Assembly: GCA_963665325.3 (NCBI GenBank)
Contig: CAXXWS020000002.1
Span: 497,644-561,643 of the forward strand
DNA from: Alphaproteobacteria bacterium
GTDB lineage: Bacteria; Pseudomonadota; Alphaproteobacteria; Bin95
Direction: 5' to 3'
DNA: 64,000 nucleotides
This document shows positions 7,320 to 39,150 of the stretch, in pieces. Positions within the stretch are counted from its first letter, which is position 1; each line of letters begins with the position of its first letter. The position numbers and the translations under genes are program-made. Under the pieces are notes generated by a model that saw nothing but the letters and a program-made list of their open reading frames with translations, ran no database searches and was not told the origin of the DNA.

Positions 7320-8459
7320 TCAGTTCGCCCCCGCCCGTCCGGCGACCCTGCGGTCGCGGTCGATCCGCGCCGCCAGCATCGCGGCCTGGATGGCGAGGCG
7401 GCGCTCCTCCAGGCGGAACCGCTCGCGGTCGAGCAGCAGCGAGGCCGCAAGCAGCGAGGCGGTCTCGCGCAAGAGCGCCTCGCCGCCCATGGACTGGAGC
7501 TCCGTCCACCAGGCCGTGCGCTCGAACCGTTTCGCGGCCAGCAGGTCGACCAGCTCCAGCCGGCTGACAGCCGCTTCCGGATCGCGGTCCGGATCGACCG
7601 CCGCCGCCCAGGCGCCGAGTTCGGGTCCGGGCGCCCTGAGCGCGCGCAGATGGCCGAGCGCCTCGGCCGCCAGCGCGCGCCGGGCGGCGGCCGACCGCGA
7701 GGCCATGACGCGCGCGCGCTCCGAGGCGGAGTCGACGGCGCCGAGCGGCTCGGGGTCCTCGACCGCCGGCACGGTCAGGTTGCGGGAGAGGTCGATCGCC
7801 GCCTGCAGCTCGTTTTCCGAGGCGAAGGTCTCGACGCCGAACAGGCTGTCGGGGCGCAAGTCCGCGCCATGGTCCTCGGACGCGCCCGAGCAGGCCGCGC
7901 TCTGGAGCGGCGCGCGGTCCGGGCTGCACCAGCGCTCCAGGATGCGCCGGTAGCGCTCGGCGCTGTCGGTGGCGGCTGCCGGTGCCGATCCCGTCGCCCG
8001 GTCGCCGGCGATGCGGCCGGTCTCGGAGACGGCGGCCGCGCGGCCCGCGAGTCGGCTCGCGGCGCGCGCCTGGGCGAGGCCCTCCGCGCCGGTGGTCACG
8101 GTGCAGGCCGAGCGCGAGGGCCGGCGCGCGACCTGCGCCTTCACCTCGGCCGCCTCGCGCTCGGTCTGCGCGCGCACCGCGGCATGGCTGTCGATCGCCG
8201 TGGTGATCGCCTTCGCGCTCTGCGCGATGTAGCCCGACTGCTGGCCGGTCTGCCTCACCAGCGCGTCATGGATGGTGCGTTCCAGGATCGCGATGCGGGC
8301 GTTCACCCTGGTGATCACCCGGCTCGCCTCGCTCACCGTCTTCCAGGTCGGCGTGCATTTGCCACCGCCGCCGAAGAACGCCTCCGCTGGCGTGGCGGCG
8401 AGCGCCCAGGCCGCGACAATTGCCGCCCCGGCCGTCAGGAACCGCGCCGTCCTGCTCAT
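7320..8459 (-). CDS. secreted periplasmic T4BSS-associated protein (TraW/IcmX position)
   Basis: Signal peptide MSRTARFLTAGAAIVAAWALAATPAEA. ATGA overlap with the upstream gene at 8456-8459. Assignment is from synteny only. Confidence 0.5.
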   Translation of the reverse strand: MSRTARFLTAGAAIVAAWALAATPAEAFFGGGGKCTPTWKTVSEASRVITRVNARIAILERTIHDALVRQTGQQSGYIAQSAKAITTAIDSHAAVRAQTEREAAEVKAQVARRPSRSACTVTTGAEGLAQARAASRLAGRAAAVSETGRIAGDRATGSAPAAATDSAERYRRILERWCSPDRAPLQSAACSGASEDHGADLRPDSLFGVETFASENELQAAIDLSRNLTVPAVEDPEPLGAVDSASERARVMASRSAAARRALAAEALGHLRALRAPGPELGAWAAAVDPDRDPEAAVSRLELVDLLAAKRFERTAWWTELQSMGGEALLRETASLLAASLLLDRERFRLEERRLAIQAAMLAARIDRDRRVAGRAGAN

Positions 8460-14886: not shown

Positions 14887-15915
14887 TCAGTTCTCCCTTG
14901 CAGGCTGCGGGATGTCGGTCCGTTCCAGGAAGGCCGCCCGCAGCTCGCGGCCCTCCTCGGAAACCATCGCGTAGGGAACCCCCGCCAGCCGGTAGGCCCA
15001 GCGCCCCGAGGGATCGCGCTCCGCCGCGCGCGGGCCGGGCGAGAGCAGATGCGCCCGGGTCACCAGCAGCAGCTCGTCGCCGAGCCGCCAGGCGCGCGCC
15101 TCGACGCCCTCGACATCGAGGGGAAGGGCGCCGGCCGGGGGATTGCCCGAAAGCAGGCCCAGCAGCATGTCGGAGCCGGCATGGAAGCCGGCGGCGCCGG
15201 CGCCGGCGAGCGGATCGGCATTGGGACCCGCCTTGGCGAGACGCAGGTCCACGCGGAAGTCGGCCACGCCCTCGCGCTCGCCCAGCATCAGCAGCACCGG
15301 CTCGGCCAGGCCCTCCAGCATCACCGAGGCATTGCCCGCGAGCCACCGGGCCTCCGGCGCGAAATGCACCAGGTGCGGACTGCCGTCCCGCTTCGTCGCG
15401 CCCAGGCGCCCGTCCGCCAGCACCGCCTCGATCGGCCAGGGCGCGCCCGTGCGGTCGAAGAACCCGACCGAGGTCACATAGCCCGCCCTGACCGCGATCT
15501 CCGGCACCCCGTCCGCGGCCAGCGGGTCGAGCCTGAGGCGGCGCACGCGCCCGAGGGCCTTGCCTTCCCGCGCATGGGCCGCCGCCTGCTGCGTCTGCCG
15601 CAGCAGGCGCCCCAGAAGCTCGATCTGCTCGCGGGTCAGGGGCAGCCGCGCCCGGCCCGCCGCAGCCGCCTCCTCGTCCGGCATCGCATGCTCCGGCCAG
15701 ATATCGCCGTCCGGATCGGGCGCGGCGCCGGTGTTCGGCACGGAGCCCACGTTGGGCACGGAGCCGACGTTCGGCCCGGAAGAGGGCGGAGGCAGCGTCT
15801 CCGGTCCGGGCGTCGCCGGCGCCTGCGCCCGGGCCGGCGAGGAGGCCGCCGGCATTCCGAGCGCCAGCAGCGCCGCAATCCCGGCAGCCCGGACCCGCGT
15901 TCCTGTCCACGTCAT
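14887..15915 (-). CDS. dotH: DotH/IcmK (TraN-like) outer-membrane-complex protein
   Basis: Trimmed from track ORF 14887..16500 to the ATG at 15915 (ATGA overlap). Signal peptide present. Position between the dotI-like genes and dotG as in IncI and Legionella. Short GSVPNV tandem repeat near the N-terminus. Confidence 0.7.
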   Translation of the reverse strand: MTWTGTRVRAAGIAALLALGMPAASSPARAQAPATPGPETLPPPSSGPNVGSVPNVGSVPNTGAAPDPDGDIWPEHAMPDEEAAAAGRARLPLTREQIELLGRLLRQTQQAAAHAREGKALGRVRRLRLDPLAADGVPEIAVRAGYVTSVGFFDRTGAPWPIEAVLADGRLGATKRDGSPHLVHFAPEARWLAGNASVMLEGLAEPVLLMLGEREGVADFRVDLRLAKAGPNADPLAGAGAAGFHAGSDMLLGLLSGNPPAGALPLDVEGVEARAWRLGDELLLVTRAHLLSPGPRAAERDPSGRWAYRLAGVPYAMVSEEGRELRAAFLERTDIPQPAREN

Positions 15916-16574
15916 CGCCGCCCCTCCGCCTTCCTCGCCAGCAGGAAGTCCGCGATCGCGACGCCCGAGAGCCGTTCGGAGCGCGGAACCCGGACCACCA
16001 GCGCCCGGGCCGCGAGGCGCTCGTCCGCCTTCTCGCCCTCGCCCGCGTAGAAGGTCAGCAGCAGCGGGAACTCGACCTCGTAGCCGACCGCCCCGTCCGG
16101 CATGGTCCGGAGCCGCGCCATCACCGGCGCCCCCTGCGCTACCGCCGAGACCACCTGGCGCTGCCTGCGCAGGCGCTCCAGCACCAGGCTCCGCTCCAGC
16201 ACAAGCTGCCAGGCCCGGAACCCGTCTTCCGTGAACCGGCCGCGCATTTCCTCCATGCGGGCCTCCCAGTCGTCGAAGCCGATATCCAGCGCCTTCGTCA
16301 CCGTCGCCACCGTCCAGGCGAGCATCACGTCCACCTCCATGCCGCCGCCGGCGTCCTCCTTGCCGTGGATCGGCACCGCCCGTCCGTCCGCGTCCAGCGC
16401 CAGCGCCACGGGGACCGTCTCGCGGAGCAGCATCGAGGCGAGCAGAACGGCCGCCGTCAGCAGCTGGCAGGCCGCGAGGCCGAGCGCGAGCGCCGGCCAC
16501 GGGCCGTGATGCAGGGGATCGCGCGCCGCCGCCGCAGGCCGGGCGTCCGCGCCGTGCGTGTCTGCCGCCGTCAC
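15912..16574 (-). CDS. dotI: DotI/IcmL-family (TraM-like) inner-membrane protein
   Basis: One TM helix followed by the conserved periplasmic domain (..VDVMLAWTVATVTKALDIGFDDWEARMEEMRGRFTEDGF..YEVEFPLLLTFYAGE..). GTGA overlap at 16571-16574. Confidence 0.75.
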   Translation of the reverse strand: MTAADTHGADARPAAAARDPLHHGPWPALALGLAACQLLTAAVLLASMLLRETVPVALALDADGRAVPIHGKEDAGGGMEVDVMLAWTVATVTKALDIGFDDWEARMEEMRGRFTEDGFRAWQLVLERSLVLERLRRQRQVVSAVAQGAPVMARLRTMPDGAVGYEVEFPLLLTFYAGEGEKADERLAARALVVRVPRSERLSGVAIADFLLARKAEGRR

Positions 16575-23421: not shown

Positions 23422-24491
23422 TGCGCTGCACTCCCGATATCGCGCACCACCAGCCAGCGGTTCGGATAGGCGGTCACGCTCAGCAGCCGGCGCATCGGCG
23501 CGATCGCCAGCAGCGCATCGGCCGCCTTCAGGAACCCCTCTTCCTCCGTCTCGCCCGCAGGGAACGCCGCCGCCGCTCCGACCTCGAACTTCCGCTTCGT
23601 CTCCCAGGCCAGGCTCCAGCCGGCGCGCTCCGCCCAGGCGCGCAGCACACCCTCCACGGTCCCGTGCCGCGCCGGGTCTACGCCCCAGCCGGCCGGTTCT
23701 GCCGGCGCCGCGGCCGCTGGCGACGCCTCGCCCTGTCCTTCCAGCGCCGCGCGAGCTTCACCGTCCACAGGCGCTGCGGGTCCTGCTTCCACTCCCCCCG
23801 GAACGCCAGACGCCAGACGCCCCGCCGGATCCATTTCCGCACGGGCCCGTTCCTCCCCGTCTTCCAGTTCACCCGCCCCGTCGACCCGGGCCGCGTCCGC
23901 CTCGGTCTCGGCAAGCGCGGCGAGCAGATCGACCGCGACGCCGGACGGGAGCCTCAGCGCCTCGCGCTGCTCGCTGTCGGCATGGCGGAAGAACACCAGC
24001 CGCCCGTCCGACCAGGTCCAGTCATAGCCCGACAGACGCGCCAGCTCGTCCAGCACCGCCGGCACGGTCCCGGTCATGACCAGGCCGAACGGCACCGGCG
24101 CACCGTGGATGACCTGCTCGCCGGCGACGCGGCCCGGCCGCTCCTCGAGCGCCGCCTCGACGCTCATCAGTTCGGCAATCCGTCCGACCAGCTCCCGGAA
24201 CGCCAGCGGCTCCAGCTGCCTGACCGCGATCTCCCTGGCCGCAAGCTCTGGAGGCAGGGCGCGCGACGGCGCATCCACGCTCACCGTCGCCGGCAGGGGA
24301 CGTGCAGCCCGAGCCGGGCCCGCTGCCCGCTCGTCCGCCGCATCCGCTGACGCGAGCGCCAGGACTGCGGCGGCCAGGACGAACGCCATGAGCAGCAGAA
24401 GCTCCGCACCCGTGCGGTCCGCCCGCCGCCGGCGCGCGTGGCGGCCTCCCGAAGGCATCCAGGCCCGCATGTCCGCCACACGCCGCGTCAT
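23418..24491 (-). CDS. membrane-anchored protein with two TcpQ/PilL-like modules
   Basis: Trimmed from track ORF 23418..24809 to the ATG at 24491 (ATGA overlap). One TM helix. Modules are GTVPAVLDELARLSGYDWTWSDGRLVFF and GTVEGVLRAWAERAGWSLAWETKRKFEV. Confidence 0.55.
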   Translation of the reverse strand: MTRRVADMRAWMPSGGRHARRRRADRTGAELLLLMAFVLAAAVLALASADAADERAAGPARAARPLPATVSVDAPSRALPPELAAREIAVRQLEPLAFRELVGRIAELMSVEAALEERPGRVAGEQVIHGAPVPFGLVMTGTVPAVLDELARLSGYDWTWSDGRLVFFRHADSEQREALRLPSGVAVDLLAALAETEADAARVDGAGELEDGEERARAEMDPAGRLASGVPGGVEAGPAAPVDGEARAALEGQGEASPAAAAPAEPAGWGVDPARHGTVEGVLRAWAERAGWSLAWETKRKFEVGAAAAFPAGETEEEGFLKAADALLAIAPMRRLLSVTAYPNRWLVVRDIGSAAQ

Positions 24492-33693: not shown

Positions 33694-34263
33694 TCAGTAG
33701 CTTCGTTCCACCTGGGTCGAGATGTCGAAACTCACCCACATGATCAGGATCATCTGCGCCGTCCCGAGCGCCATCAGCACCGTGTTCAGAACCATGGTGC
33801 GCATCCGCATCATCGCCTCCGAGCGCTCCACCCAGCGCTCCACGAACCCGGCAAGCGTCTCTTCCCAGTCCGCGCGCCCGTCCATCGCGCCCGCAACCGC
33901 AACCAGCGTCTCGTCCGGGAATCCCTGGCGGGCCGCCGAGAGCGCCGAGCCGAACCCCAGACCCTCGTTCAGCATCAGCTCCCGAACCCGGCGCATCCGC
34001 GAGCGCACATAGGGCGAGGCGCCCCGCTCGAATTGCTCGAACGTGTCCCGGTTCAGGTCCACGCCCATGCGCAGGAACTCCACGCACACGAACAGGAACC
34101 CGCTCCCCGACAGCATCCGGTAGAGCGAAAAGGGCGGGATCCGGTCCGCGAACACGCGCCCCCGGCCGGTCCAGCGCAGCACCACGAGCCGGAACGCCGC
34201 CAGAAACAGCAGGAAGGCGAGCCCGATGAGTGTGCTCTCGGTATCTGATGGCGGGATGGTCAC
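33694..34263 (-). CDS. pilR: T2SSF-domain platform protein, C-terminal-half equivalent of PilR/GspF
   Basis: One T2SSF-like cytoplasmic domain flanked by TM helices (..LNEGLGFGSALSAARQGFPDETLVAVAGAMDGRADWEETL..). GTG start at 34261-34263, immediately next to the transposon. Confidence 0.7.
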   Translation of the reverse strand: MTIPPSDTESTLIGLAFLLFLAAFRLVVLRWTGRGRVFADRIPPFSLYRMLSGSGFLFVCVEFLRMGVDLNRDTFEQFERGASPYVRSRMRRVRELMLNEGLGFGSALSAARQGFPDETLVAVAGAMDGRADWEETLAGFVERWVERSEAMMRMRTMVLNTVLMALGTAQMILIMWVSFDISTQVERSY

Positions 34264-34499
34264 GTTGTTCGATGGTTTTCAGGCGTCGGGCCGGGCGTGA
34301 CGGCGGGGGTGTCGGACGGCCGTCGGCGCGTCAAGCCGCTTCGCGGCTCCTGCGCTGCGCTCCGGCCCTTCGGGTGACCCGCCGCCGTCCCTCCGACGGA
34401 GTGCATCCATGGCCGTAAGCAAGCTTCCGGCCACGGGCCGGCCGCTTTACGCAGTGTGACAATGGGAGCGGTGTTACCCGTTACCGTTACCCTCTCTCC

Positions 34500-35498
34500 C
34501 TAGGGGTTCGAGGCGGTAACGGTTTTCGGTAACGTGTCCCTGCGGTCGTTGCCGTTGAGGGCGGCGAGGCGGTATCCGCCTTCGGATGCGCGCTCGACGC
34601 GTCCTTCGCGGACGAGCCTGTGCAGCGCCTCGGCGACGGTTGCGGGCCGGGTTGCCGCGCGCTCGCGGATCCGGCGCTGGGAGAGCGGCGCGTCGGCGTC
34701 GGCGAGGGCCTGCAGGATGCGCCGTTCGGGGGTATCCGGCTCCGGCGCCTGGTCTTCCGGCGTCTCGCGCAACCGCAGGGCGGGGCGCTCGTCGTCGTCG
34801 GCGAGTTCGATCTCGAGGTCTTCGAGGCCAGGGGCGTCGCGATGCTCGACGGTCATGAGGATCTGGCGGTCTCGCCGGCGCAGGTACAGATTCGAATCGC
34901 CCCAGGCGTGAAGTTCGCTGCTGCCGCGCAGCGCCTGCCCGGGCCGGGAGCCGCCGCTCTTTCGTGCGTGATGGACGAGGAGGACGGCGGTTTCGAAGCG
35001 GCGCTGTATGTCGCGCAGGAAGCCCAGCATGGGGGCGACCTCGGCGACGGTATTTTCGTCGACGCCGTGCAGGCGCACGAGGGGGTCGAGGACGACGAGG
35101 CGGGGTGAGACGCGCTCCACCGTCTCGACCAGGCGCTGGCGATCGGCGCGATGGTCGAGACGCAGCGTGGGCACGTCGATGACGGCGATGTCGAGGGTCT
35201 CGAACGCGGTGCCTGCCGCCTTTGCGATGCCCTGGAGGCGTGCGCGCACGATATGGCCGGCGTCCTCGGCGGCGAACAGCAGCACGGGGCCGCTTGCGGC
35301 GGGACGGAAGTGGCGCAGGCAGGGGACGCCGGCGGCGACCGCGACGGCGATGTCGAGTGCGAGGAAGGATTTGCCGCACTTGGGCTCGCCGCCGACGATG
35401 CCGACGCCCTGCTCGGACCACAACGCCTCGACCATCCAGCGGCGCGCCTGGGGGCGCTCTTCGAGCTCCGCCGGCGCCCGTGTCGGGAAGCCCTTCAC
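34500..35498 (-). CDS. RepA/RecA-like AAA_25-type ATPase with a C-terminal winged-helix domain
   Basis: Trimmed from track ORF 34500..36512 to the GTG at 35496-35498 (GTGA overlap). Walker A GGEPKCGKS, Walker B-like RLVVLDPL. C-terminal wHTH ..RRILQALADADAPLSQRRIRERAATRPATVAEALHRLVREGRVER... Confidence 0.7.
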   Translation of the reverse strand: MKGFPTRAPAELEERPQARRWMVEALWSEQGVGIVGGEPKCGKSFLALDIAVAVAAGVPCLRHFRPAASGPVLLFAAEDAGHIVRARLQGIAKAAGTAFETLDIAVIDVPTLRLDHRADRQRLVETVERVSPRLVVLDPLVRLHGVDENTVAEVAPMLGFLRDIQRRFETAVLLVHHARKSGGSRPGQALRGSSELHAWGDSNLYLRRRDRQILMTVEHRDAPGLEDLEIELADDDERPALRLRETPEDQAPEPDTPERRILQALADADAPLSQRRIRERAATRPATVAEALHRLVREGRVERASEGGYRLAALNGNDRRDTLPKTVTASNP

Positions 35499-36328
35499 CG
35501 CCGCGCCCTCCTCGGCTTGGCGGGTTCGCCCAGGGTCTCGATGAAGAGCTTCTCGTCGAGGACCTCGCGCTCCTTCTCGGCGGCGGCGGCGAGCAGGGCG
35601 TCGGCCATGACGGTGAGCGCCCGCGGGTTGCCGTCGGCATGGGCGACCAGGGTGTCCTTGAGGCCCGCGGTCATGAGGCCGGGATTGCCGGCCTGCTCGA
35701 TCAGATGGTCGAGCAGGGCCGCGAGGTCGCCGGCCTCGGCCTTGGTCATGACCAGGCGCTGGCGGATGCGCGAGGCGATGGGCTGCAGATCGGGCTGGCG
35801 GAGCTTGTCGAGCAGGCGCGTGTCGCCGGCGAGGACGACCGAGAGGATGGCGCGCGAGTCGAAGTCGGTCGAAGCCAGCAGGCGGATCTCGGAGAACACC
35901 GAGGGCAGCAGCTCCTGGGCCTCGTCGACGAGCACGACGGGGCGCATGCGGGTATCGTCGACATGGGCGAGCCAGCGCTCGCGCAGGCTTTTGAAGCTGG
36001 CCCAGCGGTTGTTGTACATCAGGTCGACGCCGAACATCTCGCCGATCTCGCGGTAGAAGTCGGACAGCCGGGAGGAGGGATGGGTGATGGCGGCGATGCT
36101 GAGCCCCTCGCAGCGGCCGAGACGGTCGGCGAGCAGGCGCAACGCCACACTCTTTCCGGCGCCGGGCTCGCCGGCGATCAAGGCGAAGCCGCCCTGGCGC
36201 ACCAGGTGGCGCTCGATCCTGAGGCAGAAGCTGTCGACGGCAGGCGTCGCCATGAGACTGTCGACCGGCAGGTCGGTGGCGAAGGGGTTCCACTTGAGCC
36301 CGTAGAAGGTGAGCAGTTCCCGGTTCAT
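35495..36328 (-). CDS. TniB/ExeA-like AAA+ transposition ATPase
   Basis: Walker A GEPGAGKS, Walker B VVLVDEAQ. ATGA overlap with the transposase stop. Confidence 0.8.
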   Translation of the reverse strand: MNRELLTFYGLKWNPFATDLPVDSLMATPAVDSFCLRIERHLVRQGGFALIAGEPGAGKSVALRLLADRLGRCEGLSIAAITHPSSRLSDFYREIGEMFGVDLMYNNRWASFKSLRERWLAHVDDTRMRPVVLVDEAQELLPSVFSEIRLLASTDFDSRAILSVVLAGDTRLLDKLRQPDLQPIASRIRQRLVMTKAEAGDLAALLDHLIEQAGNPGLMTAGLKDTLVAHADGNPRALTVMADALLAAAAEKEREVLDEKLFIETLGEPAKPRRARR

Positions 36329-37800
36329 GGCGCATCTCCCCGATCTTCGTCCTCGCCCGGACCGGGCGTCTTGTCATGGGGCAGCCAGGCCGGCGGCAGG
36401 CCGGTTGCGGCCTGGGCGTCGAGCATGCCCTTGAGCAGCGGCGGAAGTTCCCCCGTCCCCGCGCCGCCATTGCCATCGTTGCCGCCGGGGCCGGCGGGAC
36501 GGCGCACGCCATCGGCGTTGCCGCGCTTGTCGAGGGGGTACAGCGTGCACAGGCGCTCGCCGCCTCGACCGTCGATCAGATCGACGCTGGCGAGGTTCCA
36601 GCGCGCGTAACGGATCCAGGCCTCGCGCAGGTGGCGCCACGGCTGTGGCACCTGGTAGCGGATGCCCTCGACCGAGACGGTGCCGTCCGAGCGCCTGAGC
36701 GTGCGCTTCCTGGTGATGCGGAAGGCCGCCTTGAGCTCGGCCGAGCCGGGGCAGGATCTCGACGCGTCGACGCTCCCGGCCAGGCGTTGATGCGGCGTCA
36801 TGCCGAGCTCGCGGTGCTTGCGGCGGTGATAGTCCTGCTCCAGCCAGGCGATGGTGGCGTCGTTGAGCATCTTCAAGGTAAGCGCGTCGACGCCTTCGAG
36901 CTGAGCCATCAGGCGCGATTCGACCGTGCCCCAGAACGACTCGATCTTGCCGTTCTGATGGGGGCTGTAAGCGAGCGTCGTGACCCCCGCGATGCCGAGC
37001 CGGTGCAACCCCTCCTCGACCTCGCCCGCGGTCATCGCCGCGCCGTTGTCGGTCAGCAGGGACCTCGGCAGACCGCGCTTCATGAAGGCCTGGCAAAGGC
37101 CGTGGACGAACACCTCGGCGGTCTCGGCGAGGTACCACTGAAGGTGGCAGCCGAGGCGCGAGTGGTCGTCGAGGAAGCCGAGCAGGATCGGCGTCTTCCA
37201 CTCGCCCGAGGCGGTCAGCACGCGACGCTTGGCGCTGTGCATGTCGGCGTGCCACAGGGCGTGAGAGCGCGAGACCTCGTAGCTCAATACCTCGCGGGCT
37301 TCGACCGCCGGCCTGGCCTCGCTCTCATGCCACTTGCGCCGGCGCTTGCGTACCAGCCCGCGAGCCCGCATCGCCCGGGTCAGCGTCGCGTAGGACGGTA
37401 TCGGGCCGAGCTCGGGATCGGCCTCGACCCGCGCGGCCAGATTCTCGTGATGAAGCTGCGCCGACCACGACGGATGCGCCCGGTACTGCTCGTGCAGCGC
37501 CTCGATCAGCGTCGGCGACATCGCGCGCGGGCGCCCGGCATCGGCGCGCGGGCGCCGCTTGAGCGCCCCCACCGGATCGTTGTCCGCCGCCCGCGCCTGG
37601 TAGTACCAGCGCTCGATCGTGGACACCGCGAAGCGCACCCGGCCCTTGCCGGACGGGTGATCCCACTCGCGTTCGGCAAGCCGCTCAAGCTCGGCGTGCA
37701 GCCGCCCCGCCGGCGGCGGCGAGGCCAGAAGCGGCCCGACCACCGCGAAGCGCAACCGCGCCCACCGGTCGCGACGCTCGCTCCCGTCGTTGCTGTTCAT
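36325..37800 (-). CDS. DDE (rve/Mu-type) transposase, TniA/TnsB-like
   Basis: HTH-rich N-terminus. DDE triad context LWHADMH, LLTDNGAAM, HQNGKIESFW. Mu-transposase-like C-terminal barrel (..VSVEGIRYQVP..). Confidence 0.85.
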   Translation of the reverse strand: MNSNDGSERRDRWARLRFAVVGPLLASPPPAGRLHAELERLAEREWDHPSGKGRVRFAVSTIERWYYQARAADNDPVGALKRRPRADAGRPRAMSPTLIEALHEQYRAHPSWSAQLHHENLAARVEADPELGPIPSYATLTRAMRARGLVRKRRRKWHESEARPAVEAREVLSYEVSRSHALWHADMHSAKRRVLTASGEWKTPILLGFLDDHSRLGCHLQWYLAETAEVFVHGLCQAFMKRGLPRSLLTDNGAAMTAGEVEEGLHRLGIAGVTTLAYSPHQNGKIESFWGTVESRLMAQLEGVDALTLKMLNDATIAWLEQDYHRRKHRELGMTPHQRLAGSVDASRSCPGSAELKAAFRITRKRTLRRSDGTVSVEGIRYQVPQPWRHLREAWIRYARWNLASVDLIDGRGGERLCTLYPLDKRGNADGVRRPAGPGGNDGNGGAGTGELPPLLKGMLDAQAATGLPPAWLPHDKTPGPGEDEDRGDAP

Positions 37801-37848
37801 TCCGGCATCCCCCTCGCTGCTTCGTGGAGGTGCCGATGATGCGGTGCC

Positions 37849-38463
37849 CTATCCGTGCATCATAGAAACGCTTTCTGCGGGCGAAGCCGGACCTGCGCCG
37901 AGCGCGCAAAAGCCGGTCCACGGCATCAGCCAGACCAGGCTCCGCAGCAGCCGCGAGCGGAAGCCACGGCCCCGCATGATGCGCAGCAGCCGGCGCAGCG
38001 GCGCCTCTTCGGGCGGCGCCGCCAGCTCGCCCCGTCTCGCCTGCCACTCCCGGGTCAGCGGGAAGGCTTCCAGCCACCAGCGCCGCCAGCGCTTCAGCGT
38101 CGAGGCCGGAACCCCGCACCGCCGCGCGATCGTCTGCAACCGCGCGCCGCCGGCCACAGCCAGCGCACTCACCACAAGGAACAGCGCCCCGACGTAAAAG
38201 CGCCTGCCGAAGAAACGCACCGACGGCGGCTTCACGCGGCGTCGGCACACCGAACAGCACAGGCTGAAGCGCCGAACGTCGTTCCGAAGATTCGCCGCCA
38301 GACCGTGCGGCTTGCGCGGGTAGCTCGCGCTGTGAAGCGCGCCGCCGCAGCGCGGGCAACCCGCCGCCCGGCACGCCTCCGCCTCGGCCGCGTCGACCTG
38401 CTTCAGAAAATCCCAAACCCGGGCGTTGGAGAGATTGGAGTGCCGGAACAGCTTGTGCGACAT
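37849..38463 (-). CDS. Zn-ribbon plus HTH protein (possible TniQ-like target selector or regulator)
   Basis: CPRCGG..(26 aa)..CCSVCRRR four-Cys cluster. HTH-like LQTIARRCGVPASTLKRWRRWW. First gene of the transposon operon. Confidence 0.55.
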   Translation of the reverse strand: MSHKLFRHSNLSNARVWDFLKQVDAAEAEACRAAGCPRCGGALHSASYPRKPHGLAANLRNDVRRFSLCCSVCRRRVKPPSVRFFGRRFYVGALFLVVSALAVAGGARLQTIARRCGVPASTLKRWRRWWLEAFPLTREWQARRGELAAPPEEAPLRRLLRIMRGRGFRSRLLRSLVWLMPWTGFCALGAGPASPAESVSMMHG

Positions 38464-38607
38464 TGGGGCCGTCTCAGGTTGATGTCACTGTCACCGAGAC
38501 AAGCCCTCCGGCGGCCTTCTTGCAAGATCGCCGGGGGGCACCCAATCCAAAACCTCGATTAATCCGAGCCGATCAGCCCCTGATCGCCGCTGAAAGCCTG
38601 CGCCCGC

Positions 38608-39150
38608 TCACCCGATCTCGATATCGTTCGCGTAGAAACCCTCCGAGACCCAGGCGAACGAGCGCGACCAGATATCCCAGCGCGACCGGTCGCTCACCTC
38701 CAGCATCGCCGGAATGACCTCGTAGCCCATGAACCAGGTCATGCCGATGCAGCCCACGAAGATCACCAGCGGCAGAAACATCGCGCTCGCCACCGCGCGC
38801 ACCTGCTTCGAGCGCATCTCCGCGACGCGCGCCGCCGCCAGGAACAGAACCTCAGCCCGCGCCCGGCCGAGCCCGTAGAAGATCATCGCCTCCGAGGCCG
38901 GAACCCAGCGCGACAGCTCCACCGCGAAATCGTCCCCGCCGCCCGCAAGCGCCGCCTGCCAGTCCCGAAGCATCCGCACCCGGATCGTCTCGCGCGACTT
39001 CGCCTGCATCACCACGCCGAGCGCCTCGCGCAGACCAAGCCCGCCCTGGAGCAGGTCGTGCAGCAGATACCAGATGTCGATCCGCGCCTCCGTCCCCGCC
39101 GCCAGGAACCGCCGCACCGGAAACCAGACCGCCCCCCAGAGACGCCTCAT
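38608..39150 (-). CDS. pilR: T2SSF-domain platform protein, N-terminal-half equivalent of PilR/GspF
   Basis: Trimmed to the ATG at 39150 (ATGA overlap with the pilQ stop). ..LLHDLLQGGLGLREALGVVMQ..VPASEAMIFYGLGRARAEVLF.. is T2SSF-like, followed by a TM helix. Stop at 38608-38610, at the transposon edge. Confidence 0.7.
   Translation of the reverse strand: MRRLWGAVWFPVRRFLAAGTEARIDIWYLLHDLLQGGLGLREALGVVMQAKSRETIRVRMLRDWQAALAGGGDDFAVELSRWVPASEAMIFYGLGRARAEVLFLAAARVAEMRSKQVRAVASAMFLPLVIFVGCIGMTWFMGYEVIPAMLEVSDRSRWDIWSRSFAWVSEGFYANDIEIG

Follow-up and report, generated by a model that had tools for sequence, protein, structure and literature searches.

A branch of the Tn6049 transposon family that encodes a predicted replicative helicase beside a putative hexamer binding array

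We analyzed a 64,000-nt stretch of DNA (here called the window) from the Alphaproteobacteria bacterium (Bin95) assembly GCA_963665325.3 (contig CAXXWS020000002.1, positions 497,644 to 561,643), which contains a transposon with four genes, all on the minus strand. The first three genes encode a predicted transposition core homologous to that of Tn6049, and the fourth encodes a predicted replicative helicase, the C-terminal winged helix of which appears to be matched to an array of inverted hexamers at the end of the operon. We consider it probable that the helicase and the array act alongside the transposition core as an initiator-helicase module supporting the replication of the element. This role is supported by the similarity of the helicase to RepA of RSF1010 and to phage PHROGs, by a Toprim gene present in many relatives, and by the cognate palindromic array.

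The fourth gene (34500 to 35498, minus strand) encodes a 332-aa protein (P0001) that domain, motif, and profile similarities identify as a predicted replicative helicase of the RepA/DnaB type (AAA_25). Its DnaB/RecA-fold core matches AAA_25 (PF13481; E 4.6e-36; 124.7 bits against a cutoff of 27) and is followed by a winged helix-turn-helix (HTH) at residues 258 to 309. The profile of this family matches the RSF1010 RepA helicase (1g8y; E 1.2e-16), the protein also matches phage primase/helicase PHROGs, and the Walker A/B and GQxLRGSS motifs are kept across 19 relatives. The subfamily comprises 489 cluster representatives at E ≤ 1e-30. The GTG start of the helicase gene overlaps the stop codon of the preceding gene for an AAA_22 ATPase, which points to translational coupling. 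All three sampled helicase homologs at 37 to 39% identity directly follow an AAA_22 gene, and a 4-nt overlap joins the two genes in both cases in which the contig extends far enough upstream. An in-frame AAA_22-AAA_25 fusion (P0133) recurs in three independent contigs. Most of the "fused" AAA_22-AAA_25 proteins in the databases were rejected as frameshifted reads, since their AAA_22 similarity ends at residue 170 to 220 and gives way to meaningless sequence rich in R, G, and P; the exceptions that look real are P0133 and P0125, and a 576-aa call at one locus (L013) is probably a frameshift, too. The fixed slot, the 4-nt coupling, the in-frame fusion, and the conserved catalytic motifs thus argue that the helicase is an integral part of the element. 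The preliminary description had likewise treated the RepA-like and Zn-ribbon genes as integral, and this is upheld by the retention of the same gene order in relatives with 51 to 92% transposase identity, as well as by the position of the more distant helicase homologs after AAA_22.

An inverted hexamer array, identified by a repeat scan and by comparison with relatives, lies astride the stop codon of the helicase gene (34473 to 34533). One arm contains three copies of GTTACC and the other contains two copies of GGTAAC (arms at 34473 to 34496 and 34510 to 34533), with a spacer of approximately 20 nt that includes the palindromic core CCCTAGGG. An inverted repeat across the last stop codon had been noted before; it corresponds to this array and is conserved in the family. 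The array occupies the same place in nearly all helicase-bearing relatives, even where a Toprim gene follows, and the hexamers are found only beside the helicase gene, being absent from the rest of the elements. The hexamer unit differs by lineage (GGTAAC, GGGAAC, GGAAAC, GGAAGY, or GGAACC), with both arms varying jointly, and it tracks the start of the recognition helix of the helicase across different transposase clades. Thus, TRPATV accompanies GGTAAC, RNAT(V/L) accompanies GGGAAC in two transposase clades, and R(A/T)ATLY accompanies GGAAGY, while TRH(T/K)TVG accompanies GGAACC both in the closest relative by transposase (L016; 92% identity) and on a foreign backbone (L097; 28% identity). 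From this pairing, we infer that the winged helix reads the hexamer array.

Relatives of the transposase number in the thousands, and we fetched 80 genomic loci of roughly 540 genomic hits. These loci are mostly from metagenome-assembled genomes labeled Alphaproteobacteria, Gammaproteobacteria, Acidobacteriota, Actinomycetota, Planctomycetota, Nitrospinota, and others. The trio of Zn-ribbon, DDE transposase, and AAA_22 genes is kept at all 80 loci. In all relatives whose transposase is at least 58% identical, and in approximately half of those at 51 to 55%, the trio is followed by the helicase gene; among helicase-bearing relatives (51 to 92% transposase identity), its slot and 4-nt overlap are constant. 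In the transposase tree, Tn6049 falls within a helicase-less clade and the helicase bearers form the larger part of the tree; with the tree unrooted, this distribution is compatible with either gain or loss of the helicase. In genomes with multiple copies of a relative, the elements have ends of the form TGAGCG...CGCTCA and 5-bp (occasionally shorter) target duplications. The elements fall into two size classes (4.35 to 4.42 kb and 5.03 to 5.19 kb), and those of the longer class carry a fifth gene after the helicase gene, which encodes a primase-like DUF3991-Toprim_2 protein (e.g., L018:8404-9273, L071:8284-9114, and L013:8275-9144). This gene is patchily distributed inside the clade of the window element, which itself has no Toprim gene.

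The helicase and the array also occur together outside this backbone. At L097:4099-7862, a 76%-identical helicase is fused in frame to the AAA_22 protein of an element whose own transposase is 28% identical to that of the window element (with a weak Mu-transpos_C match) and whose AAA_22 protein is likewise 28% identical. The first gene of this element is unrelated, and no Zn-ribbon homolog is present in it. Its array is of the same kind (GGTTCC/GGAACC inverted hexamers).

On the basis of sequence, the transposition core is composed of a Zn-ribbon/HTH DNA-binding protein, a DDE transposase related to IS481 and Mu, and an AAA+ ATPase of the MuB/ExeA type. The four co-oriented open reading frames (ORFs) of 204, 491, 277, and 332 aa that had been reported were recovered at the same minus-strand coordinates, and the last three are indeed chained by 4-nt overlaps (ATGA at 36325 to 36328 between the transposase and ATPase genes and GTGA at 35495 to 35498 between the ATPase and helicase genes). 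Hidden Markov model classification of the four proteins, which the preliminary description had suggested, returned HTH_23, rve, AAA_22, and AAA_25 plus a winged HTH, respectively. The first protein (P0004; 204 aa; 37849 to 38463, minus strand) has a Pfam HTH_23 match (E 3.4e-6), and 32 relatives all keep its C36, C39, C70, and C73. A Foldseek search of its AlphaFold model (mean predicted local distance difference test [pLDDT] score of 65) against the PDB gave a best E value of 0.6, with weak MqsA, NrdR, and TetR matches and no likeness to TniQ. This protein had been seen as an unconventional addition; it is instead the constant first core gene of the family, with or without the helicase. The transposase (P0003; 491 aa; 36325 to 37800, minus strand) has Pfam rve and HTH_32 matches, and its best NCBIfam entry is IS481 (NF033577; 123.9 bits against a cutoff of 224). 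Its residues D186, D251, and E287 are invariant, and the family profile of its core matches only retroviral integrases. The AlphaFold model of the transposase (pLDDT of 56, with the catalytic core below 50) is confident only in a C-terminal beta-barrel (residues 362 to 420). The ATPase (P0002; 277 aa; 35495 to 36328, minus strand) has a Pfam AAA_22 match (E 5e-20), and its family profile matches MuB (8xvb) with an E value of 1.1e-7 and ShTnsC with an E value of 0.07. The ATPase also matches phrog_296, a "DNA transposition protein" (E 1.4e-23), and its nearest NCBIfam entry is an ExeA-like PEP-CTERM ATPase.

The core had been described as a TnsB/TniA-TniB pair, an assignment that we replace: the element proteins have no Mu-transpos_C (PF09299), TniB (PF05621), or TniQ match at E ≤ 0.01, and three of the four genes are homologous to those of Tn6049. 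The earlier observation that the element lacks a resolvase, a TnsA, and a TniQ gene was confirmed by its ORFs and by domain searches. In the Tn6049 copy on the Pseudomonas aeruginosa plasmid pHS87a (NZ_KR106190.1), the first gene product has 181 aa and is followed by a transposase of 479 aa (annotated as IS481 family), an AAA ATPase of 277 aa, and the product of a 90-aa ORF. Identity to Tn6049 is 40% for the first gene (E 3e-30), approximately 50% for the transposase (tblastn E 9e-115), and 52% for the ATPase (E 2e-98). Given its length of 4384 bp compared with approximately 3.5 kb and its 332-aa AAA_25-winged HTH protein, which is unlike the 90-aa ORF product, the element is by sequence a variant branch of the Tn6049 family and not Tn6049 proper. 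The preliminary description had asked whether the genes match a well-described family with a known mechanism. A named family was found, and our literature search recovered no mechanistic study of Tn6049; it also recovered no paper on the helicase- or primase-bearing branch, on AAA_25/AAA_22 transposons, on IS481 combined with ExeA, or on transposon-encoded helicases or primases.

The limits of the element (34227 to 38610, minus strand; TG..CA termini) were determined from its copies in the source genome (G000; 5 contigs, 5.58 Mb, 67% GC). A search of this genome, along the lines that had been proposed, identified 24 copies with identical ends, and these copies established both the limits and a target-site duplication of mostly 5 bp (4 bp in a few copies). 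In 21 of the 24 copies, every base of the 4384 bp is identical and all four ORFs are open; two of the others have a 1-bp deletion, and one contains another insertion sequence (IS). In the window, the duplication is CCCGA (34222 to 34226 on the left and 38611 to 38615 on the right). When the element and one CCCGA were removed, the flanks aligned without gaps to a paralog at C1:1989446-1992028 (95% identity), and this empty-site alignment independently confirms the boundaries at 34227 and 38610. The earlier ends, 34264 and 38607, are therefore superseded, with the left end lying 37 bp farther out. At the DNA level, megablast matched the element to no plasmid in PLSDB. The element is an autonomous transposon that has recently been very active and has expanded in copy number.

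Several copies bear traces of later events. The interrupted copy (C1:2290596-2297053) contains a different, 2070-bp IS, which has at least 12 identical genomic copies, ends reading CCCAAGTTTAAC..., and a transposase of approximately 620 aa. The insertion point of this IS is the CTAG within the spacer of the palindrome (equivalent to window positions 34500 to 34503), and the IS is flanked by a 4-bp duplication. The copies at C2:25283-29666 and C4:930514-934897 have unmatched duplications, and each bears that of the other: GGTCG lies to the left of the C4 copy and to the right of the C2 copy, and CCGT is arranged vice versa. This is the pattern of interreplicon recombination between copies or of an unresolved or re-sorted cointegrate, and the element seems to have mediated an exchange between replicons. 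A rearranged remnant of a related element (81 to 86% identity) lies at C1:446362-452348 (locus L096:1863-2049 and 7756-7849); it retains a terminal 43 bp, the 3' end of the helicase gene including the region of the palindrome, and a portion of the noncoding tail, with approximately 5.7 kb of other DNA between these parts.

The ends of the element read TGAGTGTGC... and ...GCCCGCTCA. At the Zn-ribbon-gene end, the sequence and its comparison with relatives revealed an imperfect terminal inverted repeat (38585 to 38610; TGAGCGGGCGCAGGCTTTCAGCGG... when read inward), of which TGAGCG and TTTCAGCGG are kept in the relatives. The terminal inverted repeat at the helicase-gene end (TGAGTGTGCTCTCGG...; 34227 to 34275) was delimited in the same way and by comparison with Tn6049; it includes two subterminal CCATCRA-type repeats (34237 to 34251 and 34261 to 34275) that are common to the relatives and Tn6049 and are presumed to be transposase-binding sites. 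A GGYTTTCAG motif had been reported approximately 10 nt inside each end. Both motifs exist (34274 to 34282 and 38590 to 38598), but they are asymmetrically placed, at 47 and 12 nt from the true ends, and only the right-hand one is conserved in relatives, in which the shared subterminal signals are the CCATCRA-type repeats. The hexamer array is separated from the helicase-side end by a conserved, hairpin-rich noncoding block of approximately 150 nt (34285 to 34445), which is common to the Toprim-less relatives L042, L076, L017, and L045 and occupies the slot of the Toprim gene in longer relatives. Folding of 34227 to 34545 as single-stranded DNA gave a z score of -2.98. An Rfam search of the element matched no family, and scans for direct and inverted repeats within the coding region returned only GC-rich noise.

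If the favored initiator-helicase role is correct, the winged helix would bind the hexamer array, making the array a loading or origin-like site, and the helicase would unwind the element for copying by a replisome. The primase could be the element's own Toprim protein in sister elements and the host primase for the window element. Copying might proceed either from a strand-transfer (Shapiro) intermediate like that of phage Mu or in a copy-out step of the kind used by IS3-type elements. The donor copy would be retained under both routes; the rise to 24 near-identical copies is consistent with such a donor-retaining mode without proving one. Under a stronger version of the proposal, which we advance only tentatively, the helicase, the array, and (in sister elements) the Toprim primase would amount to a minimal replication origin inside a DDE transposon, giving either a self-loaded replisome or a transient episome. 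In the first case, a replisome loaded by the element itself onto the transposition intermediate would free replicative transposition from host restart proteins; in the second, a circular form would be excised and would replicate temporarily as an episome. Either would make the element a hybrid of transposon and small replicon, present across many bacterial phyla.

Several observations weigh against a replicative role. Helicase activity, DNA binding, and a function in transposition are all inferred from sequence, and part of the match between recognition helix and hexamer may be owed to physical linkage and common descent. A regulatory RNA or DNA hairpin is an alternative reading of the inverted array. 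A search of the assembly for head-to-tail junctions and solo ends found none, and the identity of the 24 copies may be inflated by assembly polishing. Moreover, Tn6049 and its whole clade are without the helicase, and yet Tn6049 is present at 12 copies in strain CH34. Since Tn6049 multiplies without it, the helicase must be nonessential to the basic chemistry, and the module would be an enhancer or an alternative route.

This last point also favors a reading in which the helicase, the array, and the primase of the relatives are passenger cargo, i.e., a replication cassette captured from a plasmid or satellite and kept, for example, as a remnant or for an incompatibility or interference function. 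The swapping of the module between backbones and the presence or absence of the Toprim gene within a single clade are also compatible with cargo. Such a reading nevertheless seems unlikely given the constant slot of the helicase gene, its 4-nt coupling to AAA_22 even at 37 to 39% identity, the genuine in-frame fusion with the AAA_22 ATPase, and the conservation of the catalytic motifs, and a PADLOC search found no defense-system match. A purely regulatory role appears highly doubtful. In that case, the winged helix and the array would constitute an autoregulatory pair of protein and operator, or the palindrome would be a transcript-end hairpin, and the ATPase would be nonreplicative, acting, for example, in transpososome remodeling or disassembly as ClpX does for Mu. 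The palindrome does lie exactly at the operon end, and in some lineages the array is a near-perfect long hairpin; however, no T-run follows the hairpin, a simple stem needs no internal hexamer periodicity, and the link to a primase-like gene speaks for DNA synthesis.

The preliminary description had proposed a target-selection or replication-coupled module, and the two halves of this proposal fare differently. Replication coupling gains from the Toprim gene in relatives and from the cognate array. Target selection, in which the helicase-winged HTH and Zn-ribbon proteins would stand in for TniQ, TnsD, or TnsE and steer the element to, for example, replicating or conjugating DNA, we regard as quite improbable, even though the element has no TniQ-like gene, Tn6049 has been reported often in genomic islands, and 10 of the 24 insertions fall within a pair of paralogous regions of conjugative type (C1:1.98-2.10 Mb, with seven insertions, and C3:531-598 kb, with three). 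The Zn-ribbon gene is present in every family member, helicase bearing or not, and so its product cannot be a helicase-specific partner, and the winged helix is apparently matched to a site within the element. A weak CCNGS bias is all that the 24 targets have in common (18 of them have G at position -2), and the insertions are oriented without regard to GC skew. The clustering in islands could reflect a real preference, but it could equally come from local hopping or from the tolerance of accessory DNA to insertions.

In the window, the element interrupts a pilR-like platform gene. Its downstream half (33694 to 34226, minus strand) and upstream half (38611 to 39150, minus strand; the limit near 39150 is an estimate from an internal Met at MRRLWGAV) are joined once the element is removed, and the ORF then reads ...YANDIEIG-LAFLLFL... 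over the junction. The target was therefore one continuous membrane-protein gene of approximately 355 aa, which is uninterrupted in the C1 paralog; an insertion between two half-genes was rejected because the reconstructed site and this paralog both give a single continuous ORF. The minus-strand stop codon (TGA) of the upstream half comes from the terminal TCA of the element (38608 to 38610), and within the opposite end of the element, a GTG in frame at 34263 starts a 189-aa ORF that continues into the downstream half. The interrupted gene is flanked by a T2SSE ATPase gene and by PilS and Shufflon_N (PilV-like) genes, and a DotH/IcmK type IVB secretion core gene lies at 14890 to 16500 (E 4.9e-44). 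Together, these genes point to an IncI-like conjugation and thin-pilus region, supporting the earlier view that the transposon had landed in a conjugative element. A second copy of this region exists in the genome (window positions 23964 to 49505 versus C1:1970366-1999409; 81 to 95% identity). The element is also relevant to genome dynamics, since its insertion in the window has probably disabled a pilus gene belonging to a conjugative system. Elsewhere in the window, self-matches at 2159 to 2769, offset by multiples of approximately 52 bp, delimit a tandem repeat array of approximately 600 bp.

Bacterial DDE transposons are usually regarded as relying on the replication machinery of their hosts. 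The branch described here is large and crosses phylum boundaries within a family that has received little study; its members encode a helicase of the replicative type, often along with a primase-like protein and a putative loading site. The new findings are the Toprim class within the clade of the window element, the occurrence of the module on a foreign backbone, and the covariation of recognition helix and hexamer, together with the exact limits of the element, its burst in the source genome, and the empty-site proof. If the module works in transposition, four genes, one palindrome, and 24 fresh copies would provide a simple genetic system for studying replisome assembly on a transposition intermediate.

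Among known systems, Tn6049 is closest. Published descriptions give it a length of 3.5 kb, a gspA-like ATPase, an inverted repeat TGTGCATAAGCA (TG started), and a 4-bp direct repeat; they also report 12 copies in Cupriavidus metallidurans CH34 and a frequent association with genomic islands. The two share the order of Zn-ribbon/HTH, DDE transposase, and AAA_22 genes with the same gene overlaps, TG-started termini, short target duplications, a multicopy habit, and an occurrence in islands or plasmids, as well as subterminal CCATCRAnnAnCGTG repeats at the matching (helicase-side) end. Tn6049 differs in that its fourth ORF, of 90 aa, is unrelated to the helicase, in that it has a plain GC hairpin and no hexamer array, and in its reported 4-bp duplication compared with mostly 5 bp here. 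Other families were ruled out: Tn5053/Tn402 (TniA-TniB-TniQ-TniR) by the lack of PF09299, PF05621, and TniQ matches and of a resolvase ORF; Tn7-like elements by the presence of only four ORFs with no TnsA, TniQ, or TnsE signature and an ATPase nearer to MuB than to ShTnsC; typical IS481 by an NF033577 score below the cutoff and by four genes in 4.4 kb versus a single-gene IS of approximately 1 kb; and IS21 by an NF033546 score of 45 bits against a cutoff of 160 and an AAA_22 ATPase without an IstB_IS21 match.

Phage Mu (MuA and MuB) and the Tn552/Tn5053/Tn7 group resemble the element in pairing a DDE transposase with an AAA+ ATPase of the MuB/TnsC class, in their TG..CA ends and 5-bp duplications, and in having several transposase-binding repeats per end (presumed here). 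Mu transposes replicatively and depends on host restart proteins and a host helicase, whereas the element encodes a predicted helicase of its own. The helicase module, in turn, resembles the initiator-helicases of small replicons such as RSF1010 RepA (with its RepB' primase and ssi hairpins) and phage P4 alpha: the profile match indicates a RepA-type helicase core, the winged helix is on the same chain, palindromic short repeats lie by the gene, and sister elements supply a Toprim partner, an architecture that we take to be comparable to those of P4 alpha and RSF1010. The module of the window element differs from them in its residence within a DDE transposon, where it is coupled to a transposition ATPase and is accompanied by no plasmid or phage functions.

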